Notes: generated by a model not told the origin, from the letters alone. A DNA stretch of 64,000 nt from Bacteriovorax stolpii (GCA_945860415.1 CAMAQA010000002.1:10193-74192), one strand, 5' to 3'; positions 18,663 through 35,996 are shown, numbered from the stretch's first letter. A program made the numbers and translations.

Positions 18663-21206
18663 GTGACGGACTTCCCTACTGACATGCAGCTGCCCGCTCC
18701 TGCTGGTGACGCCGCCAGGAACTCGGGTCTGGTCCTTCCTGACCAGATCCTGCCTCCGCACGTTTTCGTCCTGCCCATGAACCAGGCCGTCGTCTACCCG
18801 ACGATGATGGCCCCGCTCCAGCTCACGATTCCGCGCTACATCGAGATGGTCGAGCACGCCCTGGCCAAGCACCCGTCGCGCACGCTCGGGCTTTTGCTTA
18901 CCCGAGACTCGGAAGTCTCTTCGGATACCAAGCTCTCGGATCTGCATCAGGTGGGCGTGATCGTGAAGGTCTTGAAGCGCCTGCGCATGCCCGACGGCTC
19001 GATCAGCCTGCTGGTCCACAGCCTCAAGCGCTTCAGGGTGAAGGCGCCTCTTTCGGAAGACCCGTACATCGTCGTCGAGCCCGAGTACCTCGAGGACGTC
19101 ATCGAAAAGTCCAACGAGTTCGATGCGCTCTCGCGTTCGACCGTGGCGCTCGTCAAGCAGCTCTCCGAGGTGAATCCGTTCTTCACCGACGAAATGCGCA
19201 TGGCGATGCTCAACGCCCCGAACCAGGGCACGGTGACCGATATCATCGCTTTCGCGCTGGCCTTGCCGAAAGACGAGGCCCAGGGCTTCCTCGAGACGCT
19301 GTCGGTGAAGGGACGCTTCGAAAAGCTCATGGTCACGCTTCGTGAGGAGAAGAACGTGGCCGAGATCCAGAAGAAGATCTCGGACGACGTGGATACGAAG
19401 GTGACCGCGATCCAGCGCGAATTTTTCCTGAAGGAGCAGCTCAAGGTCATCAAGCGAGAACTCGGCATGGAGGAGGAGGGACGCGAGAAGTCGTCTCGCT
19501 CCTTCCGCGAGCGGATCGAAGCGGCGGGAATGCTGGAGGAGACCAAGAAGATTGCGCTCGAAGAACTCACGAAGTTCGAGACGCTTTCCGAGAATTCTCC
19601 CGAGTACAACGTCTCGCGAACCTACCTCGAGACGCTTTGCTCGCTGCCGTGGAGCATCGAAACGAAGGATAACCTGGATCTCGATCACGCACAGGAGGTG
19701 CTTGATGACGAGCACCTCGGCCTCGAGAAGGTCAAGGAGCGCATCCTTGAGTTCATCGCCGTGCGCTCGCTCAAGGCCGATCCGAAGGGCTCGATCCTGT
19801 GCCTTGTCGGACCACCGGGCGTGGGCAAGACGTCGATCGGCAAGAGTGTCGCCGAGGCCTTGGGCCGCAAGTTCTACCGCTTTTCTCTCGGAGGAATGCG
19901 CGACGAGGCCGAGATCAAGGGGCATCGCCGCACCTATGTCGGCGCGCTTCCGGGCAAGATCATCCAGGCCATGCGCCGTGCAGGCTCGAAGAACGCGGTG
20001 ATTCTGCTCGACGAGATCGACAAGCTCGGGGCCTCGTTCCAGGGAGATCCGTCGAGCGCGCTGCTCGAAGTGCTGGATCCGGAACAGAACGCCACGTTCA
20101 TGGATCATTACCTCGACCTGCCGTTCGACCTCTCGAAGGTGCTCTTTATTGCGACCGCCAACCAGGCGTCGACGATTCCGGGGCCGCTGCTCGACCGCAT
20201 GGAGCTCATCGAGCTTCCGGGCTACACGCTGGAAGAAAAAGAGGACATCGCGGTTCGGCATGTCATTCCGAAGGAGCTCAAGGCCAATGGCGTGAAGCCT
20301 TCGCAGGTGCGCATCGACCGTGCGGCTCTTCGCTCGCTGATGCAGGACTATTCGCGCGAGCCAGGCCTTCGCACCCTGCAGCAGCTCGTGGGCCGAATTG
20401 CGCGCAAGGCCGCGACGAGGATCGTTCGCGCGGAAAAGCTCGGGGCTCGCGGCAAGGCCTCGCTGCCGATCCGAGTCGGAGCCGGAGACCTGCTCGAGTG
20501 GCTGGGGCCGAAGCGCTTTTACAACGAAATGGCCGAGCGCGTGACGGCACCCGGCGTGGTCACTGGCCTTGCGTGGACCGCAATGGGCGGCGACATCCTG
20601 TTCATTGAGGCGGCAGACCTTCCGGGTTCCGGCCAGCTGAAGCTCACCGGCAAGATGGGCGACGTGATGACTGAGAGCGCCTCGATTGCCTGGACCTACG
20701 TGAAGAAGAAGCTCGCTGCCGAACTGAAAGTGGGACAGGAGCACTTCAAAGATCGCGACCTGCACCTGCACATTCCCGCAGGCGCGATTTCGAAGGATGG
20801 CCCGTCGGCGGGCATCACGATGGCGTCGGCGTTGTACGGGCTCTTCAAGGGAATCCAGGCGCGCCAAAAGGTGGCGATGACGGGCGAGCTCTCGCTGACC
20901 GGCAAGGTGCTTCCGGTCGGCGGCATCAAGGAAAAGCTCCTGGCCGCGAAGCGCGCCGGCATCACGACCGTGATCCTGCCGAAGTTGAACGAGAAGGACC
21001 TGTATGACGTTCCCGAGCACACGAAGCAGGGCTTGAACCTGTTCTTCGTCAGTCACGTCGAAGAAGTCTTTCCGCTGGTGCTTGAGTTTCCGCAGAACAA
21101 GCCCGTGAAGGTGGGAGCACGAACAGTGTCGTCCAAGGGGCGGAAGCTGAAGGCGAAGGCAAGACAGGGGCGCTCGAAGGGGGGCAGCCGATCCTGGCTG
21201 TCGTGA
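18663..21206 (+). CDS. lon: ATP-dependent Lon protease
   Basis: LON N-domain, Walker A GPPGVGKTS, Walker B LLDEIDK, and the proteolytic motif DGPSAG. Confidence 0.95.
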   Translation: MTDFPTDMQLPAPAGDAARNSGLVLPDQILPPHVFVLPMNQAVVYPTMMAPLQLTIPRYIEMVEHALAKHPSRTLGLLLTRDSEVSSDTKLSDLHQVGVIVKVLKRLRMPDGSISLLVHSLKRFRVKAPLSEDPYIVVEPEYLEDVIEKSNEFDALSRSTVALVKQLSEVNPFFTDEMRMAMLNAPNQGTVTDIIAFALALPKDEAQGFLETLSVKGRFEKLMVTLREEKNVAEIQKKISDDVDTKVTAIQREFFLKEQLKVIKRELGMEEEGREKSSRSFRERIEAAGMLEETKKIALEELTKFETLSENSPEYNVSRTYLETLCSLPWSIETKDNLDLDHAQEVLDDEHLGLEKVKERILEFIAVRSLKADPKGSILCLVGPPGVGKTSIGKSVAEALGRKFYRFSLGGMRDEAEIKGHRRTYVGALPGKIIQAMRRAGSKNAVILLDEIDKLGASFQGDPSSALLEVLDPEQNATFMDHYLDLPFDLSKVLFIATANQASTIPGPLLDRMELIELPGYTLEEKEDIAVRHVIPKELKANGVKPSQVRIDRAALRSLMQDYSREPGLRTLQQLVGRIARKAATRIVRAEKLGARGKASLPIRVGAGDLLEWLGPKRFYNEMAERVTAPGVVTGLAWTAMGGDILFIEAADLPGSGQLKLTGKMGDVMTESASIAWTYVKKKLAAELKVGQEHFKDRDLHLHIPAGAISKDGPSAGITMASALYGLFKGIQARQKVAMTGELSLTGKVLPVGGIKEKLLAAKRAGITTVILPKLNEKDLYDVPEHTKQGLNLFFVSHVEEVFPLVLEFPQNKPVKVGARTVSSKGRKLKAKARQGRSKGGSRSWLS

Positions 21207-21214
21207 GCCGACCC

Positions 21215-21478
21215 TCAGATCACTTCGAAGCTGTCGGCTTTCAGGACGATCTGTGAGTTTTCATCCTCCTTCCGACCGGTGACGCTTGCATCTGCGCCGG
21301 ACTCGAACGCCTGTTCGATGGTTGATTCGAGGCTGGTGAAAAGTTTCTGTGGAATAAGCACGGAACTCGTTGATCGACCGGACTGAAGTTGAAGGAATCC
21401 GATTTTTTTACCCTTCACTGTGGTGACCACCTTAAACTCAATGACCTTGCCTGAAGACTGAGCGCTCTGTTTTTTCAT
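21215..21478 (-). CDS. small soluble protein (87 aa), translationally coupled to the CDF gene
   Basis: The ATG at 21478 overlaps the CDF stop (ATGA). The sequence MKKQSAQSSGKVIEFKVVTT… is the C-terminal part of the 313-aa track ORF. No known motif. Confidence 0.45.
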   Translation of the reverse strand: MKKQSAQSSGKVIEFKVVTTVKGKKIGFLQLQSGRSTSSVLIPQKLFTSLESTIEQAFESGADASVTGRKEDENSQIVLKADSFEVI

Positions 21479-22125
21479 TGTCCCTCGATTGTAGAAGACT
21501 CGCCTGGTCTCAGGATTTCTACTGACTCTCGGATGATCCCGAACGAGGCCTTGAGTACGAAAGTGGCCACGAGAATCGCAACCAGCACATCGGGCCACCG
21601 GGTTCCTAGGAGGGCCACGAGAGCCGAGGCAGTCAGGAGCCCGGCGTTGGAGATGAGGTCGGCCTTCGAGCAGGTCCACGTCGACTTCATGTTGATGTCG
21701 TCCGACCTGCTCTCTGAGAGAAGCCACATGCAAGTCAGATTGCCGAAGAGAGCCAGCACGCTGAAGGCGCCCATCCATCCCGAGTGAGGCAGAACCGTAG
21801 GACGTAGCAGTCCTCCGAAGCCCGAATCGAAGAGCGCCGACAGGGCCAGCAGAGCGGTCACGCCTCCCTTGGCGAGCGCTGCCCTGGCCTTCCAGTTCAT
21901 GTCCTTGTTGATCGCAATGAGGCCGAGTCCAGTCAGCAGCACATGGCTGAGCAGGTGGATCGCATCTGCGGCCAGTAGATGCGAGTGGGCTTGGGCTGCT
22001 CCCCAGAACTCGGCGATACAAACCACGGCGTTGATCGCCAGCACAGCCATCAGGGTTTTCTGATGGTGCCGTTGGGCCGATGGTTCTCCGTGCAGGAGGT
22101 TCTGGCAGGAATGACAGTCCTTCAT
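21475..22125 (-). CDS. cation diffusion facilitator (CDF) membrane domain without the usual cytoplasmic C-terminal domain
   Basis: Six-TM pattern with CDF-like TM2 (LLAADAIHLLSH) and TM5 (NMKSTWTCSKADLISNAG). ATG 22125 is preferred (MKDCHSCQ…). A GTG at 22152 would lie inside the palindrome. Confidence 0.65.
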   Translation of the reverse strand: MKDCHSCQNLLHGEPSAQRHHQKTLMAVLAINAVVCIAEFWGAAQAHSHLLAADAIHLLSHVLLTGLGLIAINKDMNWKARAALAKGGVTALLALSALFDSGFGGLLRPTVLPHSGWMGAFSVLALFGNLTCMWLLSESRSDDINMKSTWTCSKADLISNAGLLTASALVALLGTRWPDVLVAILVATFVLKASFGIIRESVEILRPGESSTIEGQ

Positions 22126-22146
22126 CTCGTCGAGAACCGTGACATA

Positions 22147-22187
22147 AGCCACCCATTAATGCAATAGCGTTGCATTAATGGGTGGCT
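22147..22187. promoter_or_regulatory. 41-bp perfect palindrome containing candidate Zur-type box A
   Basis: AGCCACCCATTAATGCAA-tagcg-TTGCATTAATGGGTGGCT: 18-nt perfect arms. It is centred in the 82-bp gap between the divergent CDF and COG0523 genes. Confidence 0.6.
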
Positions 22188-22207
22188 TGCGTTAGTCGCG
22201 GTGGTCC

Positions 22208-23419
22208 ATGAAAGATCAGTCTGCGTCAGGGCGCCCATTGCCGGTCACGGTGCTGTCGGGATTTCTCGGTGCTGGAAAAACCACCCTTCTCAATCAGGTG
22301 CTGACGAATCGAGCCGGCATGCGCGTGGCCGTCATCGTCAACGACATGAGCGAGGTCAATATCGACGCCGCCCAGATCAAGGGTGGCTCGGCCATGCTGT
22401 CGCGTCAGGAAGAGCGGCTGGTGGAAATGCAGAACGGCTGCATCTGCTGCACGCTTCGAGAAGACCTTCTGATCGAGGTTGCGAAACTCGCAGAAGAGGG
22501 ACGCTTTGACTACCTCCTGATCGAGTCAACCGGCATCTCGGAGCCTCTTCCTGTGGCCGAAACCTTTCAGTTCGCTGACCCCGCCGGCAGGGTGCTCAAT
22601 GATCTGGCCCGGCTTGACACCATGGTGACCGTCGTGGATGGGCCAAGGTTCCTCAAGGACTACAACGAGGGGGCTTTGCTCCGAGAGCGGAAACTTGCCG
22701 TGGACGAAAAGGATTCGAGAACCATTACCGACCTGTTGGTGGAGCAGGTGGAGTTCGCCAACGTGATCGTGATCAACAAGACGGATCTCATGGGCGGCAT
22801 GCGCATTCGAGAGCTCGAGGGAATTTTGAAGGCTCTCAATCCCGAAGCGACCATCCTCCGAACCAGCTTCGGGCGGATACCGTTGCCCTCCATTCTGGGT
22901 ACCGGACTTTTTGATTTTTCGCGAGCCTCGCTTGCGCCGGGTTGGATGAGGCGCATGCGGGGTGAGCCGTTGAGTGAGGCCGAGGAATACGGAATTTCGA
23001 GCTTTGTTTTTCGTGACCGCCGGCCTTTTCATCCGCAGCGTTGGGCGGATCTCTGTAGTCGGATCTGGCCGGGTGTTCTGCGCTCGAAGGGTTTCATCTA
23101 TTTGGCCTCGCGGCTGGAGCACATCGCCCTGTGGTCGCAGGCGGGCACGGTCTGGTCACTGGGGCCTGCGGGCGCCTGGAGGGCCGCCATTCCGGAAGAG
23201 GCCTGGCCGGATGACGAGTCCACGCGGGCTGCGATCAAGCGCGACTGGCACCCGATTTTCGGAGACCGCCGACAGGAACTCGTCGTGATCGGGGGGCGCG
23301 AGATGAGGCCGGAGCGGATCAGGAGCGATCTTGAACGGGCACTGCTGACGGAAGACGAGGTTGCGCTCGGCCGGTCGCGATGGAAGGGGTTTTCGGATCC
23401 TTTTCCTAAATGGATCTGA
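22208..23419 (+). CDS. COG0523-family GTPase (CobW/ZigA/YeiR-like metallochaperone), copy 1
   Basis: Walker [13 protein letters not shown], metal motif [16 protein letters not shown], and a CobW_C-like tail (RPFHPQR…RSKGF). Confidence 0.9.
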   Translation: MKDQSASGRPLPVTVLSGFLGAGKTTLLNQVLTNRAGMRVAVIVNDMSEVNIDAAQIKGGSAMLSRQEERLVEMQNGCICCTLREDLLIEVAKLAEEGRFDYLLIESTGISEPLPVAETFQFADPAGRVLNDLARLDTMVTVVDGPRFLKDYNEGALLRERKLAVDEKDSRTITDLLVEQVEFANVIVINKTDLMGGMRIRELEGILKALNPEATILRTSFGRIPLPSILGTGLFDFSRASLAPGWMRRMRGEPLSEAEEYGISSFVFRDRRPFHPQRWADLCSRIWPGVLRSKGFIYLASRLEHIALWSQAGTVWSLGPAGAWRAAIPEEAWPDDESTRAAIKRDWHPIFGDRRQELVVIGGREMRPERIRSDLERALLTEDEVALGRSRWKGFSDPFPKWI

Positions 23420-23437
23420 TTCGTTTTTAGTTGTCAT

Positions 23438-23458
23438 TATTGCATTTCAGTTGCAATA
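23438..23458. promoter_or_regulatory. candidate Zur-type box B
   Basis: tatTGCATttcagTTGCAata, 39 nt upstream of the S18 ATG. Confidence 0.5.
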
Positions 23459-23493
23459 AATGGCACCTGTTCGGACGTGATCAAAAGGAGTCA

Positions 23494-23811
23494 ATGATGG
23501 GTAGATTGAATGTGGGTTCTACAGGGGGTCGTGTGGAGCGTGGCGACTGGGAGGACAAGAGTGAGGAACGGCGTAGCGCGCCCCGCATGCGACGCTTTCG
23601 CGCGCCTCCGGATCTGATTTTCGATTACAAGGATGTCGAATCTCTCAAGCCTTTCCTGTCGGAGAGCGGAAAGATTGTTCCGGCGCGGATCAGCCGCCTG
23701 AGCGCCTCCCAACAGCGCAAGCTGACCCAGGAAGTCAAGCGGGCCCGCCAGCTGGCGTTGCTGCCCATCAGTGATCGTCACTCGGGTGGGTCCGGCGGAA
23801 GTCGCTTCTGA
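23494..23811 (+). CDS. rpsR: ribosomal protein S18, cysteine-free variant with atypical N- and C-terminal extensions
   Basis: Core [50 protein letters not shown] matches S18. RBS AAGGAG at 23485-23490. ATG at 23494 or 23497. Confidence 0.8.
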
Positions 23812-24862
23812 GATCAGCCGGGAGCTCCCAGAGTGCGAGCTCTCCGGTGTCGAATCCCACGGCGATCGAGTTTCCAGAGGGATGCCAGGCCATGCATGTG
23901 GCCTGGCTCTCTGCTGCCGAAGTGCCGATGACCATGGGTCGAAGCGCGATGGAGTCCAGGCTCCAGAGCATCCAGCAGCCGTCCGTGCCGATAGTGGCAA
24001 ACTGTCGTGGTGATGCTGGTCTGAACCCGATGTCGACAATGGTCCCGATATGGCCGCCAATCACACGCGGCTGCTGGCCGGCGGGGGTCGCTCGGGTGAA
24101 GTCCCATGACGTGATGGCTTCGCCTCCAGCGGCCAGAAGCTGCGAGCCATCCGGGCTCCACCGCAGCGCTCTGACCTGCCCAGGAAATCCCGACATTCGG
24201 AAGTCATTTCCGGACGAGGTTCGCCAGACGTGCAGCGTCTGGTCTCGGCACCCCGAGGCAATCCACCGTCCGTCTGGACTTACCGACAGTTGAAGCGGAC
24301 TGCCATTCCAGTTGAAGGTTCTCGCGGGCCGCGACGAACCTTGTTTCCAGATCTGAAGTTCAAGGTGAGAAACCGAGATAAAGCTGTCCTGTATGTCACG
24401 CCACTGCAGATCGCAGATGGCGGCGCGCGCGCCCTCGAAGCGACTGACTTCGGTGCCTTCGAGTGAACACCAGGTGATGATCCTGCCGGCTGCGGAAAGA
24501 AACCCACTGCCATCATGCGCCGGGCGGAGCAGCTCCGCGGCGGCCAGGCCCGAAAGCGATGAGCACCACTGAAGGCGGATTTCTCCATCTTCGATGCGCC
24601 AGCAGCGGAGTTCTCCCTTTTTGCTTCCGCGTCCGGATGAAATCACCAGCCCATCACATCCCAGCCATCGGACATCGGTCAGTTCAGTCGCATGCGCAAT
24701 CGTACGCGTGAGCGTCGCGCCGCCATTGAGGTGGACGATTCCGATTCCTCCGGCTGTTTCTCCGATCAGTAGATGGGTGCCGTCCTCACTCCAGTGCAGA
24801 TGGCGAATATAGTCTCCATACTCGATGGAACGGAGTGGATCGATCAAGCGGAGGTCAGACAT
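23768..24862 (-). CDS. WD40-repeat beta-propeller protein, cytoplasmic
   Basis: Repeats such as [20 protein letters not shown] and [13 protein letters not shown]. No signal peptide. The start overlaps the upstream COG0523 stop by 19 nt. Confidence 0.8.
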
Positions 24863-26217
24863 GCACGAAAGCCCTCGTTCAATTCGGCTCGATCCAGGTT
24901 TCTTCCGATGAATACCAGTTGATTGGTCCTCTCTTCGTGATCAAGCCAATCGACCTCCGGGAGACTCTCCACGATCATGTGTACTCCATGAAACACGACT
25001 TTAGAGCTGGATCCGCCCTCGGTGGGTTCTACGTTTAGAACCCCCTTCATTCGGAAGAGATCGGCTCCCCGACTTCTAACCAGATTCGAGATCCAGAAGT
25101 TGAAGATGGGTCTCGAGACGATTCCGGATACCGCGATTCCAACGGACGATACGGTGCTGTCGTGCTCATGGCCCGGGTTGAACTCATGAGAGTCCTCGGG
25201 CTCAAGAGTCGTCCCGGAAGATGTATGAAGCTGCATTTGAAACTCGGACGGATGATGTTGCAGGAAGAGCGTGTATCTGCCGTCTGCAGGAATCTCGAGG
25301 AGGAACTCCTTGGGGCCATTCTTGGAGAGCTCGAGGCTGAAGTGGCAGGGTGACGGAATCAGGGTGGACCCAGGCGCCATGGCGATGGGCTCGTCGGAGA
25401 ATAAGATCATGGCCCGCTCGCGCAGTTTGAGTACCTCGCTGTTCGTCAGCTCGGTCTGGGCGAGAATCGCGATCGATAGCGCCGGGTCTGGCCCCTCTTC
25501 AAGACGAAGAGCATGCACGCCAGCGGGCAGCGCGTAAGATCCGGACCACTCAAACGGATACTCCGGATCGAGGAATGCGGGACGAGTTCGAAGCGCTCGT
25601 TGAAGGTCGAATCCGCCCACGTCGATGACGTTTTGGATCGGGATATTGCATTGAGTGGTTCGCAGGATCCGGGCTGCGCCATTGATCGCCCGTATCCGGC
25701 CTTCGAGCGCAGGAAGGTCGGACTCCGCTACCAGATCCACTTTGTTCAGCAGGATGAGGTCGGCGAAGGCGATCTGTTCCTGGCACTCGTCTGAATCCTC
25801 GATATGCAGTGACAGATGTCTCGAGTCCACGACGGTGACCACGCCGTCGACCTGGTAGGTGGCTTTCATCTCATCGTCGGCCAGGAAGGTCTGAACGACC
25901 GGAGCTGGATCGGCAAGCCCGGTGGTCTCGATGATGATTCGGTCGAATTTGTCCCGCCTCTGAAGGAGGCGTCCCAGGATGCGAATCAGGTCGCCGCGAA
26001 CGGTGCAGCAGATGCATCCGTTGTTCATTTCATGGATCTCTTCCTCGGATGACAGGATTAGTCCGCTGTCGATGCCGATCTCTCCGAACTCGTTTTCGAT
26101 GATGGCGATTCTTTGACCGTGATGCTCGGCGAGGATTCTGTTGAGCAGGGTGGTCTTTCCGGACCCCAGAAACCCGGTCAAGATGGTCAATGGAATTCGA
26201 CTCGTATTTTCACTCAT
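24844..26217 (-). CDS. COG0523-family GTPase, copy 2, with a large insertion between the G-domain and CobW_C
   Basis: GFLGSGKTTLLN, GCICCTVRGDL and NKVDL motifs. About 130 extra residues (…EWSGSYALPAGVHALRLEEGPD… HEFNPGHEHDS) precede the CobW_C-like end. Confidence 0.85.
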   Translation of the reverse strand: MSENTSRIPLTILTGFLGSGKTTLLNRILAEHHGQRIAIIENEFGEIGIDSGLILSSEEEIHEMNNGCICCTVRGDLIRILGRLLQRRDKFDRIIIETTGLADPAPVVQTFLADDEMKATYQVDGVVTVVDSRHLSLHIEDSDECQEQIAFADLILLNKVDLVAESDLPALEGRIRAINGAARILRTTQCNIPIQNVIDVGGFDLQRALRTRPAFLDPEYPFEWSGSYALPAGVHALRLEEGPDPALSIAILAQTELTNSEVLKLRERAMILFSDEPIAMAPGSTLIPSPCHFSLELSKNGPKEFLLEIPADGRYTLFLQHHPSEFQMQLHTSSGTTLEPEDSHEFNPGHEHDSTVSSVGIAVSGIVSRPIFNFWISNLVRSRGADLFRMKGVLNVEPTEGGSSSKVVFHGVHMIVESLPEVDWLDHEERTNQLVFIGRNLDRAELNEGFRACLTSA

Positions 26218-26235
26218 GGTTTGGCTCTCCGTGGA

Positions 26236-27528
26236 TCAGGTGGAATTAAAACGGTGAAATGGCATCGGTAGACGGGGTTGCAGGATACTTCGGGTATCAG
26301 GCTCCGAAAGCGAGAGCAGTCTGGGTTTCGGGCCAAGGACCAGCGCGCGCCGGACTCGGGAAGGAATGGCCTCCGGATCGTGGGTGCACCACACGACGGA
26401 GAGGGCGCGAGACGCCTGGGTGGCCTCGAGTCGACGCACAAGCAGTCCGGCCGTCTCGGCATCGAGGCCTGAAGTCAGTTCATCGCAGAGAAGAATCTCG
26501 GGGCCTGCCGCGATTGCAGAAATCAGCATGGCCTGCTTCTGCTGACCGAAACTGAGTCCTGACAGGGGCTGATGCATTTCAGCTTGGAGCTCAAACGATT
26601 CAAACAGGTTCTCCAGCTCGCCTTCGCTGATTCGAGATCCAATTCGGGCATCCTCCCAGGGAGTGGCGCCGAGAAGGAAGTGTTCGGGATTCTGAAAAGT
26701 CATCATGATCCCGCGAATGCAGCCGCGGAGAGATTCAGTGCCCAGTCGCTTCAGGGTTCCCGAGCTCGGAGGCCGAAGTCCGGCCATCACTCGAAGAAGT
26801 GTGGTTTTCCCAGATCCGCTTGGCCCGAGAAGGGCGAGCCATTCGCCCTGTTGGAGCTCAAGATGGATCTCCGAAAATACTTCCTTTCCGAGAATCTCCA
26901 CGGCGATCCGATCCAGCTCCATCACCAGATCGGGTCTCGATCTGAACTCCATCGGATTCGTCGGGCCGGTCGTACGAAGAGCGCGAGACTCTCTGGCCGT
27001 TTCCGCCCGTCGAAGGCCATAGTCCAGAGTGGAGGCAAGAAGAAGCGAAGTGCACGCATGGGGCGCAGAACTCGGCGCACGAAGCCGAATCGCCGAGAGC
27101 CGGGAGGGGAATGCCTCAACCATGATGGCGCTTCCGGTACAGATGTCCTGAATCAGTTCGTGAAGCCAGGGAGCACTCGACACCCTCCTGACCAGGCGCT
27201 CGGCTCCATCCCGGGTGATGATTCCGGAGATCGCACCCATGAACCCTAATCCGGCGAGCCAGCGATACAGTGTGCCTGGGGCGATCCCTCTGCCGCTGAG
27301 CCAGCTGCCGAGCCAGCTGATCATCGCAATGCCGAACGAAAGTGCTAGAAACAGGTAAGGGGTGCTCGAGTGGCGCTTCGCGGAGCTCGACCCATGACGA
27401 TACGTCCAGGAGGCAGCGAAGAGAAGAAGCGCGATCAGCGGCACGAAGGGGGTGATGTCGTCCGCCGAGAGCGCGGCCAACAGGAGAATACCCGAGGCCG
27501 CGGCAGTGAGAATCATGCCTCGGATCAT
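26236..27528 (-). CDS. fused ECF transporter T-component-like membrane domain plus A-component ATPase (CbiQ/CbiO-like)
   Basis: An N-terminal region of about 190 aa is hydrophobic. It is followed by Walker A GPSGSGKTT, signature LSFGQQKQ and Walker B ILLCDE. The ATG at 27528 overlaps the upstream ORF stop (ATGA). Confidence 0.7.
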   Translation of the reverse strand: MIRGMILTAAASGILLLAALSADDITPFVPLIALLLFAASWTYRHGSSSAKRHSSTPYLFLALSFGIAMISWLGSWLSGRGIAPGTLYRWLAGLGFMGAISGIITRDGAERLVRRVSSAPWLHELIQDICTGSAIMVEAFPSRLSAIRLRAPSSAPHACTSLLLASTLDYGLRRAETARESRALRTTGPTNPMEFRSRPDLVMELDRIAVEILGKEVFSEIHLELQQGEWLALLGPSGSGKTTLLRVMAGLRPPSSGTLKRLGTESLRGCIRGIMMTFQNPEHFLLGATPWEDARIGSRISEGELENLFESFELQAEMHQPLSGLSFGQQKQAMLISAIAAGPEILLCDELTSGLDAETAGLLVRRLEATQASRALSVVWCTHDPEAIPSRVRRALVLGPKPRLLSLSEPDTRSILQPRLPMPFHRFNST

Positions 27529-27695
27529 GGGACGCGTGCGCCCCGTGACATCAGGCGTGACCACCCCGCACCCATCAGAACGCCACAGAGCAACAGGAGC
27601 AGTCCGAAAACAAATGGCGACTCATCGCTCGGAGCGGCCGTTCCGCCCACGATCTCGGGTAGTATTCCGGCGAGTCGGGCGTGATGGTCGAACAC
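27525..27695 (-). CDS. small membrane protein, CbiN-like C-terminal half
   Basis: …APSDESPFVFGLLLLLCGVLMGAGW resembles the PSGE-plus-TM end of CbiN. A GTG at 27695 lies 4 nt after the cbiM stop. The stop overlaps the next ATG. Confidence 0.4.
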   Translation of the reverse strand: MFDHHARLAGILPEIVGGTAAPSDESPFVFGLLLLLCGVLMGAGWSRLMSRGARVP

Positions 27696-27699
27696 CGCC

Positions 27700-28263
27700 T
27701 CATCCAGGCCCGTGTAGCTGAGTGACAGCCGGGGTGTCTGGCGAGGAGGATTGAAATGCGATGGCGAGAACTGCAGCATCTGCGACGTAGACAGCCATGC
27801 TGGAAACTGCCAATGCGGTAGCGATCCCCCAGAGAGTCCTTCGACCGGGTCGAAGGAAAGTGGCGACAGTGCGGCTCAGGAAAAAGGCGAGCCCCGGACC
27901 GATCACTCCAAGCGTGAGGATATTTGCCCCCAGGCTGGTCAGCCCGCCGTGCCCCATTCCCACTGCCTGAATGGCAAGGATCAATGCGACGGGCAGGATG
28001 ACGTGCAGGGGGCCCACCAGAAGGGCAAGTAAACCCGTCATGCACAGGTGCGAACTGATTCCGAAGAGCGGCATAGGAATCGGAAGCACCGTGCAGGCGA
28101 AGACCAGTGCCGATCCTACCGTGAGAAGGTTTCTGAACGAAGGATCGCCGGTCGTCGTCAGGGTGTGCTTCATCCGGATCGAGCCCAGGAGAACGGCGGG
28201 TGCCGCCAGCGAGGTCAGCGCCAGGGCATGTGCGGCAGGCAGGATTCCCTCGGAAATGTGCAT
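27700..28263 (-). CDS. cbiM: ECF transporter substrate-capture component, CbiM/NikM family
   Basis: Hallmark N-terminus MHISEGIL and a conserved internal His (GISSHLCMTG). Polytopic. Short for the family at 187 aa. Confidence 0.8.
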   Translation of the reverse strand: MHISEGILPAAHALALTSLAAPAVLLGSIRMKHTLTTTGDPSFRNLLTVGSALVFACTVLPIPMPLFGISSHLCMTGLLALLVGPLHVILPVALILAIQAVGMGHGGLTSLGANILTLGVIGPGLAFFLSRTVATFLRPGRRTLWGIATALAVSSMAVYVADAAVLAIAFQSSSPDTPAVTQLHGPG

Positions 28264-28281
28264 CCGATCACCGCTCTCTTC

Positions 28282-28452
28282 CTATTTTTTGGAGCTGCTC
28301 GGGCTCTTGCCTTCGACAAAGAGGACGTGCTTTCGAACCTTGGGGTCATATTTCTTCTTCTGCAGCTTGTCGGTCGTCTTCTGCTTGTTTTTGGTCGTGT
28401 AGTAGCAAAAGCCGGTTCCTGCGGTTGACACCAGACGAACTTTCTCTCTCAT
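28282..28452 (-). CDS. rpmG: ribosomal protein L33, non-zinc-ribbon (C-) form. 56 aa, absent from the supplied ORF track
   Basis: Manual translation gives [56 protein letters not shown]. This matches the L33 pattern (xRLVSxAGTGxxYxTxKNK…KYDPxVRKHV). Confidence 0.85.
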
Positions 28453-28470
28453 GGTCGGTACCCCTTTTCT

Positions 28471-28491
28471 TATCGCAATTCAGTTGCGTTA
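28471..28491. promoter_or_regulatory. candidate Zur-type box C
   Basis: tatCGCAAttcagTTGCGtta, 22 nt upstream of the rpmG ATG (minus strand). Confidence 0.5.
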
Positions 28492-28513
28492 TTAGGGCTC
28501 CATATTCAAAACG

Positions 28514-28741
28514 TCAATGGGCATTTTTTGAATCGTTCAGTGCGCGTTTGAACCATTCCAGGACTCGAGAGTAGTGGGCCTCGCCATAGAGTTCTCGAAA
28601 TCGCCTTGTGTCCTGCAAGGCAGTGCTCTGGAGCAGTCGGACCCTGGCCTGCAGGTAGTCGCGAGTCAGGGGTATTCCGCACTTGAGGGTGATGCACTCC
28701 TTCCATTCTTCGAACGATGTCGGAAGTTCAGTCTTTTTCAT
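28514..28741 (-). CDS. hypothetical protein (75 aa)
   Basis: The ATG overlaps the upstream stop (ATGA at 28738-28741). Helical and charged. No known motif. Confidence 0.45.
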   Translation of the reverse strand: MKKTELPTSFEEWKECITLKCGIPLTRDYLQARVRLLQSTALQDTRRFRELYGEAHYSRVLEWFKRALNDSKNAH

Positions 28742-29322
28742 GATTTCCTCGGGTTTAGGTTACGCCACATTTGCGACCCATCGATCGGTCGGACCATTGG
28801 CCTGAGTTCGAGGTCACGCCAGAAATGGCGCAGGTTGATCGCTCGTCGCAGTGAGGTGGGCCGATGACGATTGTGGAACTTTTCTTCGATCCACCGTTCG
28901 TAGTGCTCCATCCATCCAATGAACCGAGCAAAGGTTGGAAGGGCGCTTTGATACTCGGCGGCGGAGGGCGCGGCCGCCAGCTCTGGACTCTTGAGAAGAC
29001 ACCACGGATCCTGGAGGTCCAGACCACGGGCAAAGCGCGGCCTGGGTCGGTGGCGCGACCAGAACCAGAGGCCTTGTCCAGGGACGTGCAGGGTGATGCC
29101 AAACGCCCAGAGACAAACGTCAAAACCGAGCTGTGGGCGACGATCATCCACGTAAGCGGCAGAGCTGGACCATTCGACCTGCTTTTCGAGTTTCCTCAAT
29201 CCAAAGAGGAGTAAGAGATCGGCTTCGGGCGCTTTGATGTCGTGGCCCCAGAGGCAAAACTGATGGTCCCAGTTTCTCAGTCGGTCAGCGTTTGAGAGGG
29301 TGGAAGTGGCCAGAGGGTCCAA
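28738..29322 (-). CDS. hypothetical Trp-rich protein (194 aa)
   Basis: ORF directly downstream of box D. No signal peptide and no known motif. Confidence 0.5.
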   Translation of the reverse strand: MDPLATSTLSNADRLRNWDHQFCLWGHDIKAPEADLLLLFGLRKLEKQVEWSSSAAYVDDRRPQLGFDVCLWAFGITLHVPGQGLWFWSRHRPRPRFARGLDLQDPWCLLKSPELAAAPSAAEYQSALPTFARFIGWMEHYERWIEEKFHNRHRPTSLRRAINLRHFWRDLELRPMVRPIDGSQMWRNLNPRKS

Positions 29323-29341
29323 GGTCTTCTAACCCTGACAT

Positions 29342-29362
29342 AGATGCAACTCAGTTGCAATA
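29342..29362. promoter_or_regulatory. candidate Zur-type box D
   Basis: agaTGCAActcagTTGCAata, 23 nt upstream of ATG 29322 (minus strand). Confidence 0.55.
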
Positions 29363-29376
29363 ACAATCGTCGGGCT

Positions 29377-29754
29377 TCAGTTGCGCGGTGGACTACAGCC
29401 CGTCAGTTTTCCATGGCTCCATTCCAGGAGCCAGGGCGTCGTCGCCACGGCCTTGTCGAGCTCAGTGGCTTGCTCGGGTGCGCGAAAGGCGCGCAGATTG
29501 CGGGGAAGCCTGGCACGATCACGCAAGATTTCGCCGGTTTCTCCTCGAACGTAAATAACGACCGGGGGAGCCGTTGTTCCTACGGCGAGCTGCTCGATCA
29601 AGTCATGGCAGCCCTGACAGCGAGGGCTTGCGAGAACGACTTGAACCTTCGGACCAGTTGCATCGAGGAAGGGACGAAGTCGCGAATCATCGATTGATTC
29701 CAGCGATCGAGGCAGCAGCGCGAGGATCGCAAGGCAGGGAGCCAGGGCACTCAC
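29377..29754 (-). CDS. exported thioredoxin-fold-like protein with a CxxC motif
   Basis: Hydrophobic N-terminus. VVLASPRCQGCHDLIEQL shows the beta-strand, CxxC, helix pattern. The start overlaps the TBDR stop. Confidence 0.45.
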   Translation of the reverse strand: MSALAPCLAILALLPRSLESIDDSRLRPFLDATGPKVQVVLASPRCQGCHDLIEQLAVGTTAPPVVIYVRGETGEILRDRARLPRNLRAFRAPEQATELDKAVATTPWLLEWSHGKLTGCSPPRN

Positions 29755-31928
29755 AAGTCCACCCGCATGGTGAGGCTGACGATTCTTCCGCGGAGCGGTC
29801 CCCAGATGAAATTATTATCCAGATGAAAATGCGTGGGATCGGTGCCGTGCTGGTTCCAGTTCAGCGGAGAAACGCCCATGCCGGTCTGCGTGACGTCAAA
29901 GAGGTTCAGGGCGGTCAGCTTCAGGCTGATCTGCGAGCTGTGCCGGTACCGAAACGAGAGGTCGGTGGTCGTGAACGCCGGAGCACGGGAATTCTTGCGG
30001 CGATCACCGCGAATATCTGCGAACTCCGGCGGGTCCGTGGGATTGGTGTGCTGGAGACTCTCGAAACGATTGCCATAGCGGTACCGAGCAAGATCGCGGG
30101 CACCATAGAGTCTTCCGGTCAGGTGAATCTCAAACGGCCCCCGGTGGCAATCGACGAGAAGTTGCAGCCGCTGCTCGATCGGCGCCGTGGGCAGCCGCCA
30201 GGCGTAACCCGCAGGAAAAATGAACTGCTCGAATCCAGCACTCAGGTCGAGGTCGTTCAGTGCGCTCCATCGAGAGGTCAGTTCGAGTGCACTGATGGCG
30301 TAGGTTTCGTCCGAGTTCCTGAAGACCACGGGATCACCAATCACGACATCCTGTTCGGCATAGGCCATGTTCTCAATCCACGTGACGTAGGCTCCCGCTG
30401 AGGTTTCCCATTTGGACTGGGTGTGGGCCATTCTCGCATGGGCGGAGTGCGATTTCTCCAGCTCCGTGATGCCCACAATAAAGCCCGACTCGCTCAGGCC
30501 ATGCTGCGATTCAAGGAAGGCCAGGGGCACCCTGTACCCCCGACCGTAGCCCAGCTCTCCGCGCCAGTTTCCAGACCAATAGTGATTCAAGTAGGCGCGT
30601 GGCGAGAGCAGGGTCGAAGACAGCTGATTCTGTCCGTCAGGCCGGTCTCGCCAGCGAACTCCCAGTCGGTCGAGGCGCAGCGCCAGTGAGAGATCGGTAT
30701 CCGACGACAGGGCAAGAATGGACTGACCGAAGATGCCTTGTGAGAAGAAATCGAGTGAATCCGAAGGAAGTGCACCCGACTCAAAGAGTTTTACCGATTG
30801 CGAGGACATTCGCTGGCGGCGGGTTTCCGTACCGAGCGTGAAGGCGTGCGCTCCGCTGGACCAGAGGTATCTGAGATCTGCGAACCCCAGCTGGTCGCTG
30901 CTCGAGTAGTCGTAGCCGTGCATGTAGATCGTATCGAGTGCCTGGCTCGCGAATGACCCCCTCGCCTGAATTCGCTGATCGTCGCTCCAACTCTTCTGAA
31001 TGCTCAGAGTGACCTCATCGCGTTCCAGACGAATGTCATCGGTAATGTAGGAAAGGTCGCCGGCAAACGGCAGGCGAACGTTTCCTCCGGGGAGGAGCTG
31101 GTAGTAGTCGAGATTGTCGGAAAGGATGGATCGGGGTCCAGCGGGTCGAAACTTGCTGGTATTTCCGCCAAGTGCCCCGAGAGATTGTCTTGCGTATTTT
31201 GCTTCGGCAAGCCATGAGTCGCCCCATTCTCGAGAGGCTTTCAGGTAGCCAGCCCACTGCCGTGTGGTCGGAAATTCCGAGACGCCATTGCCGTCAACGT
31301 CCCAGAAGCCATTTTCGGAAAGCTGAAATGCGGCGGCAGCCCGTGTCTGCTCATTCGCTGACACCCAGGTGCCCACGGTCGAAACCAGCCGGCTGCCCGC
31401 ATTGCCGAGTTCGGCGATCGTTGAAAAGTCGTTTCCTCTCGGCTTTTGAGTGACGACATTGACGACACCGCCGATGGCTTCCGGCGCCAGCTGGGCTGCA
31501 CCGGTGCCTCGAGAAATCTCGATTCGCTCGACACCGGCAATGGGCATCGCGTCCAGCCCGTAGAGCGACGCAATCGAAGAATGCAGCGGAAACCCGTCGA
31601 CCAACACGGTGGTATGTTCACCGCGCATCCCGTTGAGCATCACCCGCTTGGCGCCGCAATTGGCACAGGTGGTCTGGATGTCGACTCCGGATTCGCTGTC
31701 GAGGGCTTCGATCAGGTTTCGCGAGGATTTCGTGTCCAGGCGTTTCCTGCCGATGGTTCCTGTCGCGACGCTCCCGCCCTGCTTGACTGCGCGAGCACGG
31801 ACTACGGTCTCGTAGAGGATCGGGCCCGCGCTGGTGCGAGGCTCAGCGGCTGCTACCGATGTGAATGATGTGAAAAAGGGCAGTGCCACCAGAGTCGGCA
31901 GCACTGCCCCGCAGATCAGCTTGAGCAC
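29751..31928 (-). CDS. TonB-dependent receptor 1
   Basis: Signal peptide, plug domain (…GVERIEISRGTGAAQLAPEAIGGVVNVVT), a long beta-barrel and a C-terminal aromatic-rich strand. Confidence 0.85.
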   Translation of the reverse strand: MLKLICGAVLPTLVALPFFTSFTSVAAAEPRTSAGPILYETVVRARAVKQGGSVATGTIGRKRLDTKSSRNLIEALDSESGVDIQTTCANCGAKRVMLNGMRGEHTTVLVDGFPLHSSIASLYGLDAMPIAGVERIEISRGTGAAQLAPEAIGGVVNVVTQKPRGNDFSTIAELGNAGSRLVSTVGTWVSANEQTRAAAAFQLSENGFWDVDGNGVSEFPTTRQWAGYLKASREWGDSWLAEAKYARQSLGALGGNTSKFRPAGPRSILSDNLDYYQLLPGGNVRLPFAGDLSYITDDIRLERDEVTLSIQKSWSDDQRIQARGSFASQALDTIYMHGYDYSSSDQLGFADLRYLWSSGAHAFTLGTETRRQRMSSQSVKLFESGALPSDSLDFFSQGIFGQSILALSSDTDLSLALRLDRLGVRWRDRPDGQNQLSSTLLSPRAYLNHYWSGNWRGELGYGRGYRVPLAFLESQHGLSESGFIVGITELEKSHSAHARMAHTQSKWETSAGAYVTWIENMAYAEQDVVIGDPVVFRNSDETYAISALELTSRWSALNDLDLSAGFEQFIFPAGYAWRLPTAPIEQRLQLLVDCHRGPFEIHLTGRLYGARDLARYRYGNRFESLQHTNPTDPPEFADIRGDRRKNSRAPAFTTTDLSFRYRHSSQISLKLTALNLFDVTQTGMGVSPLNWNQHGTDPTHFHLDNNFIWGPLRGRIVSLTMRVDL

Positions 31929-31932
31929 GGAA

Positions 31933-32364
31933 TTACCAGGCGCGCTTCAACGCCGAGCAGGTATTGACGTGAAAGTGAGTGCCATGTTTCCAGCGAATAT
32001 TCACTTCAGAGGGTCTTTCCAGTGACACGTCTTCAGATGGGAGGACGACTCGGATCATGGTCGCTCGGGAGTGGCCGCCCTGAAGGTAGACCCACTTCCC
32101 GTCAGGACTGAGCTTGTCAAACCGAACTCGAATCGGCTCGGGACGATCCGATCCGTGCGAGTAGTTGGTGACGATCAGTGCAGTGGTCCCCTCGAGGCCG
32201 GGGGTGGATTCTGATTGCTGGATGTCAGAAATCTCGACCCGACAGGAGAACCGAGGATCCCCGCGGTCGCGGCCCTCGAATACCAGCGCTGGATCAGCAA
32301 GAGCGGCCCCGGATAAGGCGACGGACAAGCCGAGGGCACCTAGAAATACTGCTAACTTCTTCAT
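31933..32364 (-). CDS. secreted small protein with a His-rich C-terminal patch
   Basis: Signal peptide MKKLAVFLGALGLSVALSGAALA. Contains …NIRWKHGTHFHVNTC…. RBS AAGGAG. Confidence 0.55.
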   Translation of the reverse strand: MKKLAVFLGALGLSVALSGAALADPALVFEGRDRGDPRFSCRVEISDIQQSESTPGLEGTTALIVTNYSHGSDRPEPIRVRFDKLSPDGKWVYLQGGHSRATMIRVVLPSEDVSLERPSEVNIRWKHGTHFHVNTCSALKRAW

Positions 32365-32415
32365 GCGGTTCTCCTTCGTGAATGGATCGTTGATCGGGCT
32401 GTGTATTCAGACCTT

Positions 32416-32640
32416 TCAGCTCGGATCGCCCTGCTGTGCACGTGCGGCAAGGCGCTGCTCCTTGTGTTTCTTCTTCTGTGCGACGTATTCATTGACCGTC
32501 TCGAGCGTCACGCGATGCGGACGGGTCGGCTCGTGGGTGATCGGCGAAATCACGGTAGCGACCGGATCGGCGCGATAGACGGGCGAGTTTCGGCGCATGT
32601 TGCGGCGGCTCTTAGAGATCTTTTTCTTGGGTGTTGCCAT
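32416..32640 (-). CDS. rpmF: ribosomal protein L32, non-zinc-ribbon (C-) form with a C-terminal extension
   Basis: [17 protein letters not shown] is a canonical L32 N-terminus. The position of the CxxC…C ribbon is occupied by SPITHEPTRPHRVT. Confidence 0.75.
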   Translation of the reverse strand: MATPKKKISKSRRNMRRNSPVYRADPVATVISPITHEPTRPHRVTLETVNEYVAQKKKHKEQRLAARAQQGDPS

Positions 32641-33844
32641 TTGTCGGTTCTCCGGTGTGGTGCCCTACGGAATGCAGGGACTTGAAATGGGGTTTTCGGG
32701 TGCGCCGCTTTTCAGAGCGCTCCCACTCTTTTTCGCGTTCTTCGCGGAAAGGATCGCGAAAGCGGCTCCAGTCGAGGTGCATCTCGAAGTCGCTGAGCAG
32801 GCACCGGTCGAGCTCACGAAAAAACGCTTCCGATCGCATCCGCCTCGACACATGAGAATCCCAAGCGAAAGCCAGCTCAGTCATCCGATCTCCGGTTTCA
32901 GGATTCCAGTGTTCGAAGGCCTCGGGGTGATCCTCACGAGCCTGGCGAAGCTCGTCGGCGGGAAGCGTTGCCAGCCAGTATCCATCTCCCGAGCAGTCAA
33001 AGAGCCGAGGGCCTGCCTGCGTGATGGTAAAAGCGACATCGGTCTCCGAGGCGATCCAGGCGGTGCCTTCGCTGCGCAGCAGCTCCTCGGGCCAGCGGCG
33101 CACGAGCTGATAGAACCGTTCGGGGTGAAAGGGACGATTCCTGCGAAAGACCTGCCCGGGCTGGGCGTGCTTCGAGAACTGAAGCCCGAGCCGCCAGACC
33201 GCTCCGTTGGCTGTTCGCTCTGCTGAAAATTCGCGGGAGATCAGCTGGCGGGCCCATTCCGAAGTGATGTCAGACCGCTCCAGAATTTCGGCGCGAGTAT
33301 TCAAGCTCCTCAGGAATTCGGCTGAGGCATGCTTCTCGTGTTCCGTACCCGAAAGGACGAGAGCATCCGAGAAGTCGATCTGGTCGGCGATGGCTTCGAC
33401 CAAGGGTACCTGGCGGTCAAGTCCGATTCGTCGGGTCGAGACCCAGTCGAGAAGAAGCTTGTCAGTGCCAATGGCTGAGACGAACGATCGAATTCGGAAT
33501 CCAGCCTGGTGAAGCGGTTGATCCGCGCCAAAGGCGTCGACAATGGCCCACGGGTCGGCGTCGATCGGGGTCACGAGCCAGATTGCGCTCTCGAGCGGGC
33601 TACTCTGAGCCATCGGAAGCAGCCGGTCTTCGATCGCTTGCCGAACAGAACAGGACGAGCAATCGGAAGTCTCTTTCGAGGGGGTCGTGACTAAGGCGCC
33701 ACCGGAAAGAGTGGCCAGCAGTCGTGCGAGCGAATTGCCTTCTCGTACACGGACACTTTGAACGACGACGACCGAACGCTCGGAGGGAGCAGTGCGCCGC
33801 GATTTCGCAGCCAGGCGTTCGGCAAGTGAGATGATCTCAGCCAT
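32612..33844 (-). CDS. COG0523 paralog with degenerate GTPase motifs (copy 4)
   Basis: The C-terminal half aligns by eye to copy 3 ([11 protein letters not shown]…, [10 protein letters not shown]…DPF). Walker A is replaced by [15 protein letters not shown] by CSSCS, and NKTD by LSGTE. Confidence 0.7.
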
Positions 33845-35075: not shown

Positions 35076-35101
35076 CGAGGACTTCCTTTTTCGAGGACGG
35101 A

Positions 35102-35389
35102 TTAGTTTTTTCGGCCCTTCGCGACCAGTCGTGCCTTGATGGTGCGGAGACGATCCGAGAGGTTCGCATCCTTGGCAAGCTTGATGGCCCGGCTGATTCC
35201 TCCCTGCTTGTCGATCGTGCGGATGGCACGAGTCGACAGGCGAAGTGACAGGATCTGGCCGAGCTCCGGAATGGAGTAGCGCTTGCTGACGATGTTGGGC
35301 AGCCAGCGCGTGCGGGTCTTGATGTTCGAGTAGCTGACGAGGTTGCCGGTCGTCGGGCCCTTGCCGGTGAGTTCGCAGAACTTAGACAT
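35102..35389 (-). CDS. rpmB: ribosomal protein L28 (no CxxC pair)
   Basis: [33 protein letters not shown] matches the L28 N-terminus. The start is set at ATG 35389. Confidence 0.85.
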
Positions 35390-35708: not shown

Positions 35709-35718
35709 GGGGTCCTCG

Positions 35719-35961: not shown

Positions 35962-35975
35962 GGTGTTCTCCGGTC

Positions 35976-35996
35976 ATTTGCAATTTTGTTGCGTGT
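35976..35996. promoter_or_regulatory. candidate Zur-type box E1
   Basis: attTGCAAttttgTTGCGtgt, 18 nt upstream of the rpmE2 ATG. Confidence 0.5.

Follow-up and report, generated by a model that had tools for sequence, protein, structure and literature searches.

We analyzed a 64,000-nucleotide stretch of the Bacteriovorax stolpii genome (GCA_945860415.1, CAMAQA010000002.1:10193-74192; hereafter the window), focusing on a run of minus-strand genes that encodes a transporter of the energy-coupling factor (ECF) type, related to CbiMNQO, which an earlier note on this DNA had placed behind a Zur-type box. The run starts at box C, a candidate Zur-type operator (TAACGCAACTGAATTGCGATAA, 28470-28491, no strand assigned) whose core, at 28474-28488, reads CGCAA-N5-TTGCG. 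Behind it, all on the minus strand, lie rpmG (28282-28452), which encodes a 56-residue paralog of ribosomal protein L33 of the Cys-less form; cbiM' (27700-28263), which encodes a shortened S component of 187 residues; cbiN' (27525-27779), an 84-residue CbiN remnant in the +1 frame that overlaps the 3' end of cbiM'; and cbi(QO) (26236-27564 or 26236-27528), which encodes a protein of 442 or 430 residues comprising a T domain and one ABC ATPase domain. These are followed by genes for a 457-residue COG0523 GTPase containing the motif GCICC (24844-26217; Pfam cobW and CobW_C) and a 364-residue WD40 beta-propeller protein (23768-24862; Pfam WD40 families), the final gene of a module that is conserved in other genomes. 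The best explanation that we can offer for the series from box C to the WD40 gene is that it represents the promoter-proximal half of a Bdellovibrionota zinc-starvation operon, a proposition that we regard as evenly balanced. Origin in that phylum is indicated by the Lon protease of the window, which is 91% identical to its counterpart in one Bdellovibrionia metagenome-assembled genome (87-91% across such genomes).

The rpmG gene is missing from the open reading frame (ORF) track because it is shorter than the usual 60-residue limit, and the earlier note had recovered it by manual translation. Both Pfam (Ribosomal_L33, 1.3e-16) and NCBIfam (NF001860, 76.8 bits against a cutoff of 50) agree with that translation. 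The protein has one Cys in its whole sequence and is therefore a zinc-independent (C-) form of L33. After a gap of 18 nt comes cbiM', whose product starts MHISEGIL, contains an internal histidine (His72), and matches Pfam CbiM at 3.9e-30, all in accord with the earlier description except that the gene is incomplete, as detailed below.

Zur-type boxes upstream of the transporter genes

Box C belongs to a palindrome family of the form TGCAA-N5-TTGCA that has seven sites in the window, at 22160, 23441, 28474, 29345, 35979, 36002, and 39870. Six sites match the core with at most one mismatch, against 1.41 expected, a count that was reached in none of 100 shuffles of the 64-kb sequence. Each of the six is located in a promoter region in the 22-40 kb interval, and zinc-starvation genes are the sole genes within the window that the family marks. 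For Desulfovibrio, Rodionov et al. (2004, PMC545781) predicted a Zur box, ATGCAACnnnGTTGCAT, that equals this motif. Boxes A (22160-22174) and E have the same 7-3-7 palindrome and differ from that prediction at 1 of 14 positions. The Desulfovibrio box was predicted upstream of znuABC-zur only, whereas the regulon marked in this Bdellovibrionota genome would be much larger.

The genes behind the boxes encode Cys-less paralogs of L33, S18, L28, and L32, two ZigA-type COG0523 proteins (618 and 586 bits against an equivalog cutoff of 600), a receptor whose best match is ZnuD, and a Fur-family regulator, which together make up what, judged from sequence, is the hallmark set of a Zur regulon. The regulator gene (36085-36582, plus strand) is divergent from boxes D1 (35979-35993) and D2 (36002-36016). 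Its product, a candidate Zur, matches Pfam FUR at 7.9e-22, and the top match among solved structures is M. tuberculosis Zur/FurB (1.8e-16), marginally above PerR.

Box C itself is a symmetric variant of the palindrome that is unique in the window. Its edge lies 17-21 nt 5' of the rpmG ATG, close to the 22 nt originally given. Scored with a matrix trained on the six other boxes, box C reaches 23.1 bits, more than any other site in the 64 kb outside the training set; the next-best site scores 11.5 bits, and 23.1 bits was attained in none of 50 shuffles. Approximately 870 nt further 5' stands box E (ATGCAACTCAGTTGCAA, 29344-29360, no strand assigned), a strong palindrome with one mismatch to ATGCAACnnnGTTGCAT, no mismatches to the TGCAA-N5-TTGCA core, and a score of 31.4 bits on a matrix partly trained on box E. 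It is possible that box E serves as an upstream operator or promoter region for the entire minus-strand unit. Visual inspection shows a promoter-like TTGACG ... TAATAA pair overlapping box C, on which we do not rely.

The alternatives to Zur control that are usual for this transporter family were searched for as well. A scan of 20000-36000 gave no Rfam match of any kind at E<=1, the cobalamin riboswitch included, and no NikR-type site occurs in the window even when three mismatches are allowed; the earlier note had named either element as evidence against its reading. Three further near-matches to the Zur consensus (22427-22443, 26012-26028, and 34855-34871) were considered as operators and rejected. 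They fall within the three COG0523 genes and encode EMQNGCICC, and we therefore read them as coding-sequence coincidences.

The module in other genomes

We surveyed 80 genome loci retrieved with a CbiM alignment, together with two metagenome contigs. The same architecture recurs in 22 loci, with a fused Cbi(MN) of 305-316 residues and a Cbi(QO) of 440-493 residues, the exception being L158, in which Cbi(QO) is cut short at 314 residues. A COG0523 ortholog lies no more than 4 kb downstream in 19 of the 22, and a WD40 gene accompanies 17, a linkage that, with the seven palindromes and the hallmark genes, sustains the earlier placement of the transporter in a zinc-starvation setting alongside a COG0523 protein. 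According to the labels of their metagenome-assembled genomes (MAGs), the carriers are Myxococcota, Acidobacteriota, Latescibacterota, Planctomycetota, Burkholderiales, Alteromonadaceae, Vampirovibrio, and unclassified delta-proteobacteria. The order (Fur-family regulator)-cbi(MN)-cbi(QO)-COG0523-WD40 is, by this comparison, a conserved unit across many phyla, and we refer to its transporters as the clade.

The surroundings of the clade loci differ from those of canonical cbiMNQO loci. Nine clade loci have a Fur-family gene immediately 5' or divergent, as compared with none of ~60 canonical ones, and a Zur-type box is found upstream in ~10 clade loci, whereas the canonical loci yielded two matches, both more than 850 nt away. 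A cobalamin riboswitch precedes cbiM in 5 of 16 canonical loci and in none of 13 clade loci. At L001 a perfect box stands at -100 of a cbi(MN) gene whose protein is only 40% identical to that of the window, and the divergent region of an Alteromonadaceae locus (L121) holds a sequence, ATGTTGTACTGTAACAC, that looks similar by eye to Zur boxes of the E. coli type. A solitary clade CbiM (P0007) is encoded divergently from Fur, CobW_C, COG0523, L31, a dihydroorotase paralog, and S18; L31/S18 paralogs are also present at L086-L088 and L092.

A profile search of 1.84 billion representatives returned ~45-50 full-length fused representatives among 2989 CbiM-type proteins; the fused family is rare but real. 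The linkage of rpmG to cbiM, whose conservation in relatives the earlier note had raised, proved to be lineage-specific, occurring among the surveyed loci in the window genome only. All four module proteins are at their most divergent in the window lineage, and neither a COG0523 protein search nor a JGI metagenome scan with CbiM' returned a close relative of that lineage.

Two observations concern the spread of the module. Its proteins are 85-93% identical between MAGs labeled Acidobacteriota and Latescibacterota (L094, L104, L105, L118, L129, L158, L164), which suggests either that the module has recently moved horizontally as a unit or that binning was at fault. At L164, ~1.7 kb of extra sequence separates the Fur-family gene from cbi(MN), presumably a mobile-element insertion, judged by size alone.

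A shortened S unit

Although taken for an intact gene in the earlier note, cbiM' covers only positions 1-165 of the 205 in the Pfam CbiM model, as compared with 1-204 in full-length relatives, and at 98.9 bits it falls well short of every NCBIfam equivalog cutoff (180). The closest relatives of the 187-residue protein share 40-49% identity with it and are 306-312 residues long. When a 308-residue relative is aligned to the window by tblastn, its residues 1-171 match in frame 1 and its residues 245-295 in frame 2, with ~29 nt between the two segments. The window lacks ~73 codons and changes frame at this point, and the missing part comprises the last CbiM helix, which carries the conserved segment VLLGFAPVQxPLAxLEG, and the first CbiN helix. 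The identical 187-residue product is present in three assemblies, and the deletion is therefore no one-off assembly error. The window copy is the sole shortened one among 23, as well as among the ~45-50 full-length cluster representatives.

The C-terminal extension of the relatives, aligned with the mini-ORF of the window, matches canonical CbiN (hhalign 98.4%, E 4.7e-15, 63 columns), and the relatives are therefore natural CbiM-CbiN fusions. The description of the mini-ORF as CbiN-like is upheld in its homology and revised in its extent: similarity to CbiN is limited to ~27525-27716, the periplasmic loop and second helix, in a frame other than that of the overlapping cbiM', and the mini-ORF alone has no Pfam match. 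CbiN has two transmembrane helices with an extracytoplasmic loop between them, and both helices are present, fused to CbiM, in intact clade members. The cbiN' piece preserves the loop motif and has no first helix or signal sequence that would export the loop. A programmed +1 frameshift at the cbiM' stop (GGA-TGA-G) was considered and rejected; the codons for the conserved G-L-D of CbiN lie 5' of the stop and in the other frame.

The metal ligands, with roles assigned after PMC3945884, are retained in what remains of the S unit. Met1, His2, and His72, invariant in CbiM alignments, are all kept in cbiM'. At other positions the clade departs from canonical CbiM, with Leu in place of Cys59, Thr in place of Cys70, Leu in place of Met118, and an invariant Asp in place of Thr162. 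Position 118 corresponds to the pocket residue Met113 of NikM2, and the clade substitutions lie near the site in sequence; they could retune selectivity.

What the deletion would mean for function can be gauged from the Nik systems. The metal site of NikM2 is held in place by His190 and Glu198 of the last helix (His194 and Glu202 in R. capsulatus), and nickel uptake by R. capsulatus Nik(MN)QO was greatly impaired when His194 or Glu202 was replaced (PMC3945884). We regard the activity of the window S unit as doubtful by this analogy, and consider an impaired copy and a remodeled but working variant to be about equally probable.

A separate feature is seen in most of the fused clade proteins, in which the first CbiN-type helix ends in a lipobox-like L-x-G-C (GLSGCA, LTGCD; for example, L094 10634-10921). 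This raises the question of whether their CbiN part undergoes processing or lipid modification.

The fused T and ATPase protein

Translation of cbi(QO) can start at a GTG at 27564 (442 residues) or an ATG at 27528 (430 residues). The ATG, which makes the ATGA overlap with the cbiN' stop noted earlier, is the more likely of the two, and the 430-residue version is also the one called as a gene. Pfam places an ABC_tran domain at residues 231-364 of the 442-residue ORF. For the N-terminal T domain, Pfam gave no family and a profile sequence search of the PDB was empty. Comparison by hhalign identifies the N-terminal ~205 residues as a remote CbiQ homolog (96.5%, E 7.8e-10, 185 columns), and the coupling motifs of the T domain align with those of CbiQ, AARLRLG with AQKNRLGY and LR(S/G) with QRGY. 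Among 19 aligned N-terminal T domains, R162 and R197 are invariant, and L001 has a sub-threshold Pfam CbiQ match. The N-terminal domain of Cbi(QO) is thus best read as a short, divergent T component, in agreement with the fused T/A protein originally proposed.

The ATPase motifs are all intact (GPSGSGKT, FQNPE, LLCDE, and THD). Throughout the clade the ABC signature is LSFGE/Q rather than LSGGQ, with LSFGQ at residues 337-341 of the 442-residue ORF in the window. With one ATPase domain per polypeptide, both ATP sites of a homodimer would therefore bear the deviant signature.

The closest companion to the window protein comes from another sample (JGI 3300059473). This QO protein, P0269, is encoded on a contig that begins at the QO gene; it is 58% identical to that of the window, and the two have in common the catalytic motifs as well as a 27-residue hydrophobic insertion in the T domain, PGTLYRWLAGLGFMGAISGII, found only in this pair (window ~27219-27299, residues ~89-115; P0269 residues 75-101). 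One possibility is that the insertion adds a helix and that it evolved in step with the shortening of the S unit. A scan of genomes with the T/A fusion alignment returned generic ABC ATPase matches only.

Many clade T domains start with a His-rich MHxHAEH or MHLHADH sequence (L094 10908-, L104, L106, L118, L100, L101, L097), which is absent from the QO proteins of the window and P0269. It could act as a cytoplasmic site for metal hand-off.

The COG0523 and WD40 pair

The 457-residue COG0523 protein matches Pfam cobW (1.7e-60) and CobW_C (2e-18), with its top NCBIfam matches all under cutoff, and it is distinct from the two ZigA-type paralogs of the island. Its orthologs at the 19 ECF-type loci lie 3' of cbi(QO) and share 45-64% identity. 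The WD40 gene, whose product has no obvious signal peptide by eye, overlaps the 3' end of the COG0523 gene; the same arrangement, a COG0523 ortholog and then a WD40 gene, is seen at 17 ECF-type loci and at most of 34 further loci that have no ECF genes. At the Verrucomicrobia locus L265, the COG0523-WD40 pair is followed by ZnuA-ZnuC-ZnuB.

Operons of the form znuCBA-COG0523(subgroup 5)-WD40 have been described behind Zur sites in alpha-proteobacteria (Haas et al. 2009, PMC2770081). These operons and L265 resemble the window in having the same pair, at 47-55% identity to the window protein, Zur-linked and in one operon with an importer. They differ in the importer, which there is ZnuABC with a periplasmic binding protein and here is a CbiM-type ECF transporter; the ECF genes occupy the place that ZnuABC holds in other lineages. 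From the WD40 pairing described by Haas et al., we assign the window COG0523 protein provisionally to subgroup 5.

Discussion

ECF transporters are known for vitamins, Co2+, and Ni2+, and to our knowledge none has been tied to zinc homeostasis. Searches of the accessible full-text literature, which excludes subscription-only papers, yielded no account of a CbiM-type transporter linked to Zur or coupled to COG0523, consistent with the statement in the earlier note that no characterized example was known. The nearest items are a DUF4198 zinc-capture protein that was formerly misannotated as CbiM (PMC12663993) and the COG0523 survey (PMC2770081).

The clade has several features in common with CbiMNQO, the group-I ECF cobalt transporter of R. 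capsulatus (5X3X/5X41) and Salmonella. The S unit has the N-terminal Met-His and the internal His, residues 1-208 of Cbi(MN), ahead of the CbiN-type extension, match the CbiM chain of the R. capsulatus structure at 6e-25, the T domain is homologous to CbiQ and has both Arg coupling motifs, and the ATPase domain is CbiO-like. In contrast to those systems, the clade has two fused genes, (MN) and (QO), rather than four; its T domain is ~50 residues shorter and escapes detection by Pfam or PDB sequence searches; and there is one ATPase domain, with the LSFGE/Q signature, for each T domain. A Fur-family gene or Zur-type box takes the place of the B12 riboswitch, the genes are linked to COG0523-WD40, and the S unit carries Leu59, Thr70, Leu118, and Asp162. 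Nik(MN)QO of R. capsulatus and TtNikM2 (PMC3945884) provide a second comparison, sharing with the clade a natural M-N fusion, the same four-nitrogen site residues, and, in intact clade members, the stabilizing residues of the last helix. The Nik systems differ in being nickel importers that are under NikR or associated with Ni enzymes, with Q and O separate, and the window copy differs further in having lost the helix that bears the His194/Glu202 equivalents.

We propose that the window transporter belongs to a Zur-controlled clade of group-I ECF importers that is encoded by two fused genes and acts in the zinc-starvation response, a reading that these comparisons put at about an even prospect. 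The Fur-family protein encoded 8 kb away probably represses the operon when zinc is plentiful. Once Zur has released the operator, the S unit would capture a divalent metal at the N-terminal Met1/His2/His72 site, the QO module would power its uptake with ATP, and the COG0523/WD40 pair would receive the metal and deliver it to client proteins. The most likely substrate is Zn2+, which we favor at a little under even confidence because the same COG0523-WD40 pair adjoins ZnuABC in other lineages; Co2+, the main rival, appears somewhat less likely. More tentatively, and with less than even confidence, we suggest that two-gene Cbi(MN)-Cbi(QO) transporters are Zur-regulon zinc importers of the inner membrane in diverse phyla, with a retuned Ni/Co site and physical coupling to COG0523 and WD40 proteins that take the metal directly. 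As part of that suggestion, the retuning might have come about through, for example, the Asp162 that is invariant in the clade together with the loss of two cysteines, Cys59 and Cys70.

Several points weigh against the proposal of a Zur-controlled zinc importer. We infer zinc-dependent repression, the direction of transport, the substrate, and hand-off to COG0523 from evidence that is all comparative. Box C, the poorest fit to the published consensus among the boxes, has 4 mismatches to ATGCAACnnnGTTGCAT in 14 positions, as many as arise by chance, and a strict scan gave no consensus sigma-70 promoter. The Ni/Co-type site is fully conserved (Met1, His2, His72, Gln99, Gly106/107, and Asn114); a planar N4 site of this kind is argued to give NikM2 its Ni/Co selectivity and to favor d7/d8 ions (PMC3945884), and the conserved site therefore fits Co2+/Ni2+ better than Zn2+. 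Subgroup-5 COG0523 genes are found beside NiCoT-type cobalt/nickel permeases, too (PMC2770081). In the window itself, cbiM' has lost the last helix of the seven-helix CbiM core (P-x-Q-x-P-L-x-x-x-E-G), which is present in all 22 related loci, and impairment of the S unit is expected because the site-stabilizing residues went with it. Of 54 positions that are near-invariant in the clade, CbiM' also differs at 13, the most of any copy. The subunit composition is a further difficulty. In known ECF transporters a single T component is paired with two ATPase domains, and the one T per ATPase domain in Cbi(QO) is at odds with that stoichiometry.

These points bear differently on the competing explanations. 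The transporter could have kept its ancestral specificity and import Co2+ (or Ni2+) as a Zur-induced, zinc-sparing response, with Co2+ substituting for Zn2+ in tolerant enzymes and COG0523/WD40 distributing it. Cobalt reportedly mitigates zinc starvation in P. aeruginosa, according to the title and abstract of a 2025 paper, which we place on the side of this account. So do we the retention of all NikM/CbiM metal ligands and loop-stabilizing residues, the argument that the planar N4 site selects Co2+ and Ni2+ (PMC3945884), and the co-localization of subgroup-5 COG0523 with NiCoT permeases (PMC2770081). We nevertheless judge it somewhat unlikely: the same COG0523-WD40 pair stands beside ZnuABC, an established zinc importer, the four clade changes could retune selectivity, and no B12-synthesis or Ni-enzyme genes were seen in two annotated neighborhoods. 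Far less probable is an ordinary Co/Ni transporter for B12 or Ni enzymes that sits in a zinc island by chance. The Pfam and NCBIfam names (CbiM, cobalt ECF component) and the automatic annotation of relatives as cobalt/nickel transport would suit it; the lack of a riboswitch or NikR site in the regions scanned here, the riboswitch counts at clade and canonical loci, the recurrence of the COG0523, WD40, and Fur-family linkage across many phyla, and the position of cbiM' 18 nt behind a Cys-less L33 gene with a Zur-type box would not. It is similarly improbable that the adjacent Fur-family regulators are Nur-like nickel sensors and the module a nickel-uptake system. Membership of the Fur family alone is silent on the sensed metal, the window regulator is nearly equal in its matches to Zur, PerR, Fur, and Nur structures, and the high-GC Acidobacteriota loci have no recognizable Zur box. 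Yet the same box before Cys-less ribosomal paralogs, ZigA-type COG0523 genes, and a ZnuD-like receptor gene is a signature of Zur and not of Nur, and the L31/S18 paralogs at L086-L088 and L092 and the E. coli-type box seen by eye at L121 point the same way.

A different challenge concerns the window copy, whose ECF genes might be a decaying relic in which the deletion and frameshift inactivated the S unit, the operon being kept for rpmG, COG0523, and WD40 only. The loss of ~73 codons with a change of frame, the uniqueness of the shortened copy, the uptake-relevant residues on the missing helix (PMC3945884), the lack of a first helix or export signal in cbiN', and the number of departures from conserved positions are all as this account would have it. 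The divergence of CbiM' was at first counted as a sign of decay and then dropped, since the other three module proteins are likewise most divergent in this lineage and the divergence is not specific to cbiM. The conservation of catalytic motifs and of the 27-residue insertion in the P0269 protein, 58% identical and from another organism, argues for selection in the window lineage; moreover, every ATPase motif is intact, and the cbiM' ligands and the CbiN loop motif are preserved. Because the deletion removes exactly two helices, the topology of the remainder would persist. On balance we find the relic account somewhat improbable. The system as a whole is best described as an ECF Co/Ni-type family recruited, with a metallochaperone pair, into the zinc-starvation response, of which the window example is damaged or remodeled.

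If the transporter is under Zur control, it would represent a new entry route for zinc, or for cobalt as a zinc substitute, where zinc clusters lack ZnuABC, and would supply a concrete partner for the subgroup-5 COG0523 proteins. The subgroup-5 branch includes eukaryotic homologs, and its clients and metal source are poorly defined. The module would also probe to what extent retuning of a planar N4 Ni/Co site is possible, and for annotation it means that clade members should not be read as evidence of cobalt uptake for B12 synthesis. Should the zinc reading be true, this would be the first ECF zinc transporter and the first transporter-to-metallochaperone relay for zinc, and the fusion of one T to one ATPase would imply an unorthodox subunit arrangement.

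Neighboring genes

Between box E and box C lie two minus-strand ORFs that have no assigned function and no family match in Pfam or NCBIfam. The first encodes 194 residues (28738-29322), and its coding status is uncertain because the gene caller in another assembly preferred a 116-residue ORF on the opposite strand. The second, of 75 residues (28514-28741), lies directly 5' of box C and was predicted as a gene in two other assemblies.

Of the remaining palindrome sites, the one at 23441 precedes the S18 paralog, and that at 39870 lies at the start of the ZnuD-like receptor gene. Box A stands between a ZigA-like COG0523 gene and a divergent gene (21475-22152, minus strand) for a 225-residue CDF protein that consists of the membrane domain only, and the two genes have this strongest Zur-type box in common. 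A cation-efflux-family protein behind a zinc-starvation operator is unexpected.

Boxes D1 and D2 separate the Fur-family gene from an L24/L28/COG0523 operon, in which genes for L24 (35382-35819, minus strand) and L28 (35102-35434, minus strand) come directly behind the boxes, with a ZigA-type COG0523 gene after them. Zur regulons usually include L28 paralogs; we know of no such role for an L24 copy. Adjoining a ZigA-type COG0523 gene is one for a 410-residue CobW_C-only protein that has no GTPase domain (32612-33844, minus strand), and the same pairing is seen at the unrelated loci L086-L088, where a 301-residue CobW_C-only protein is encoded beside cobW (L086 6281-7186).

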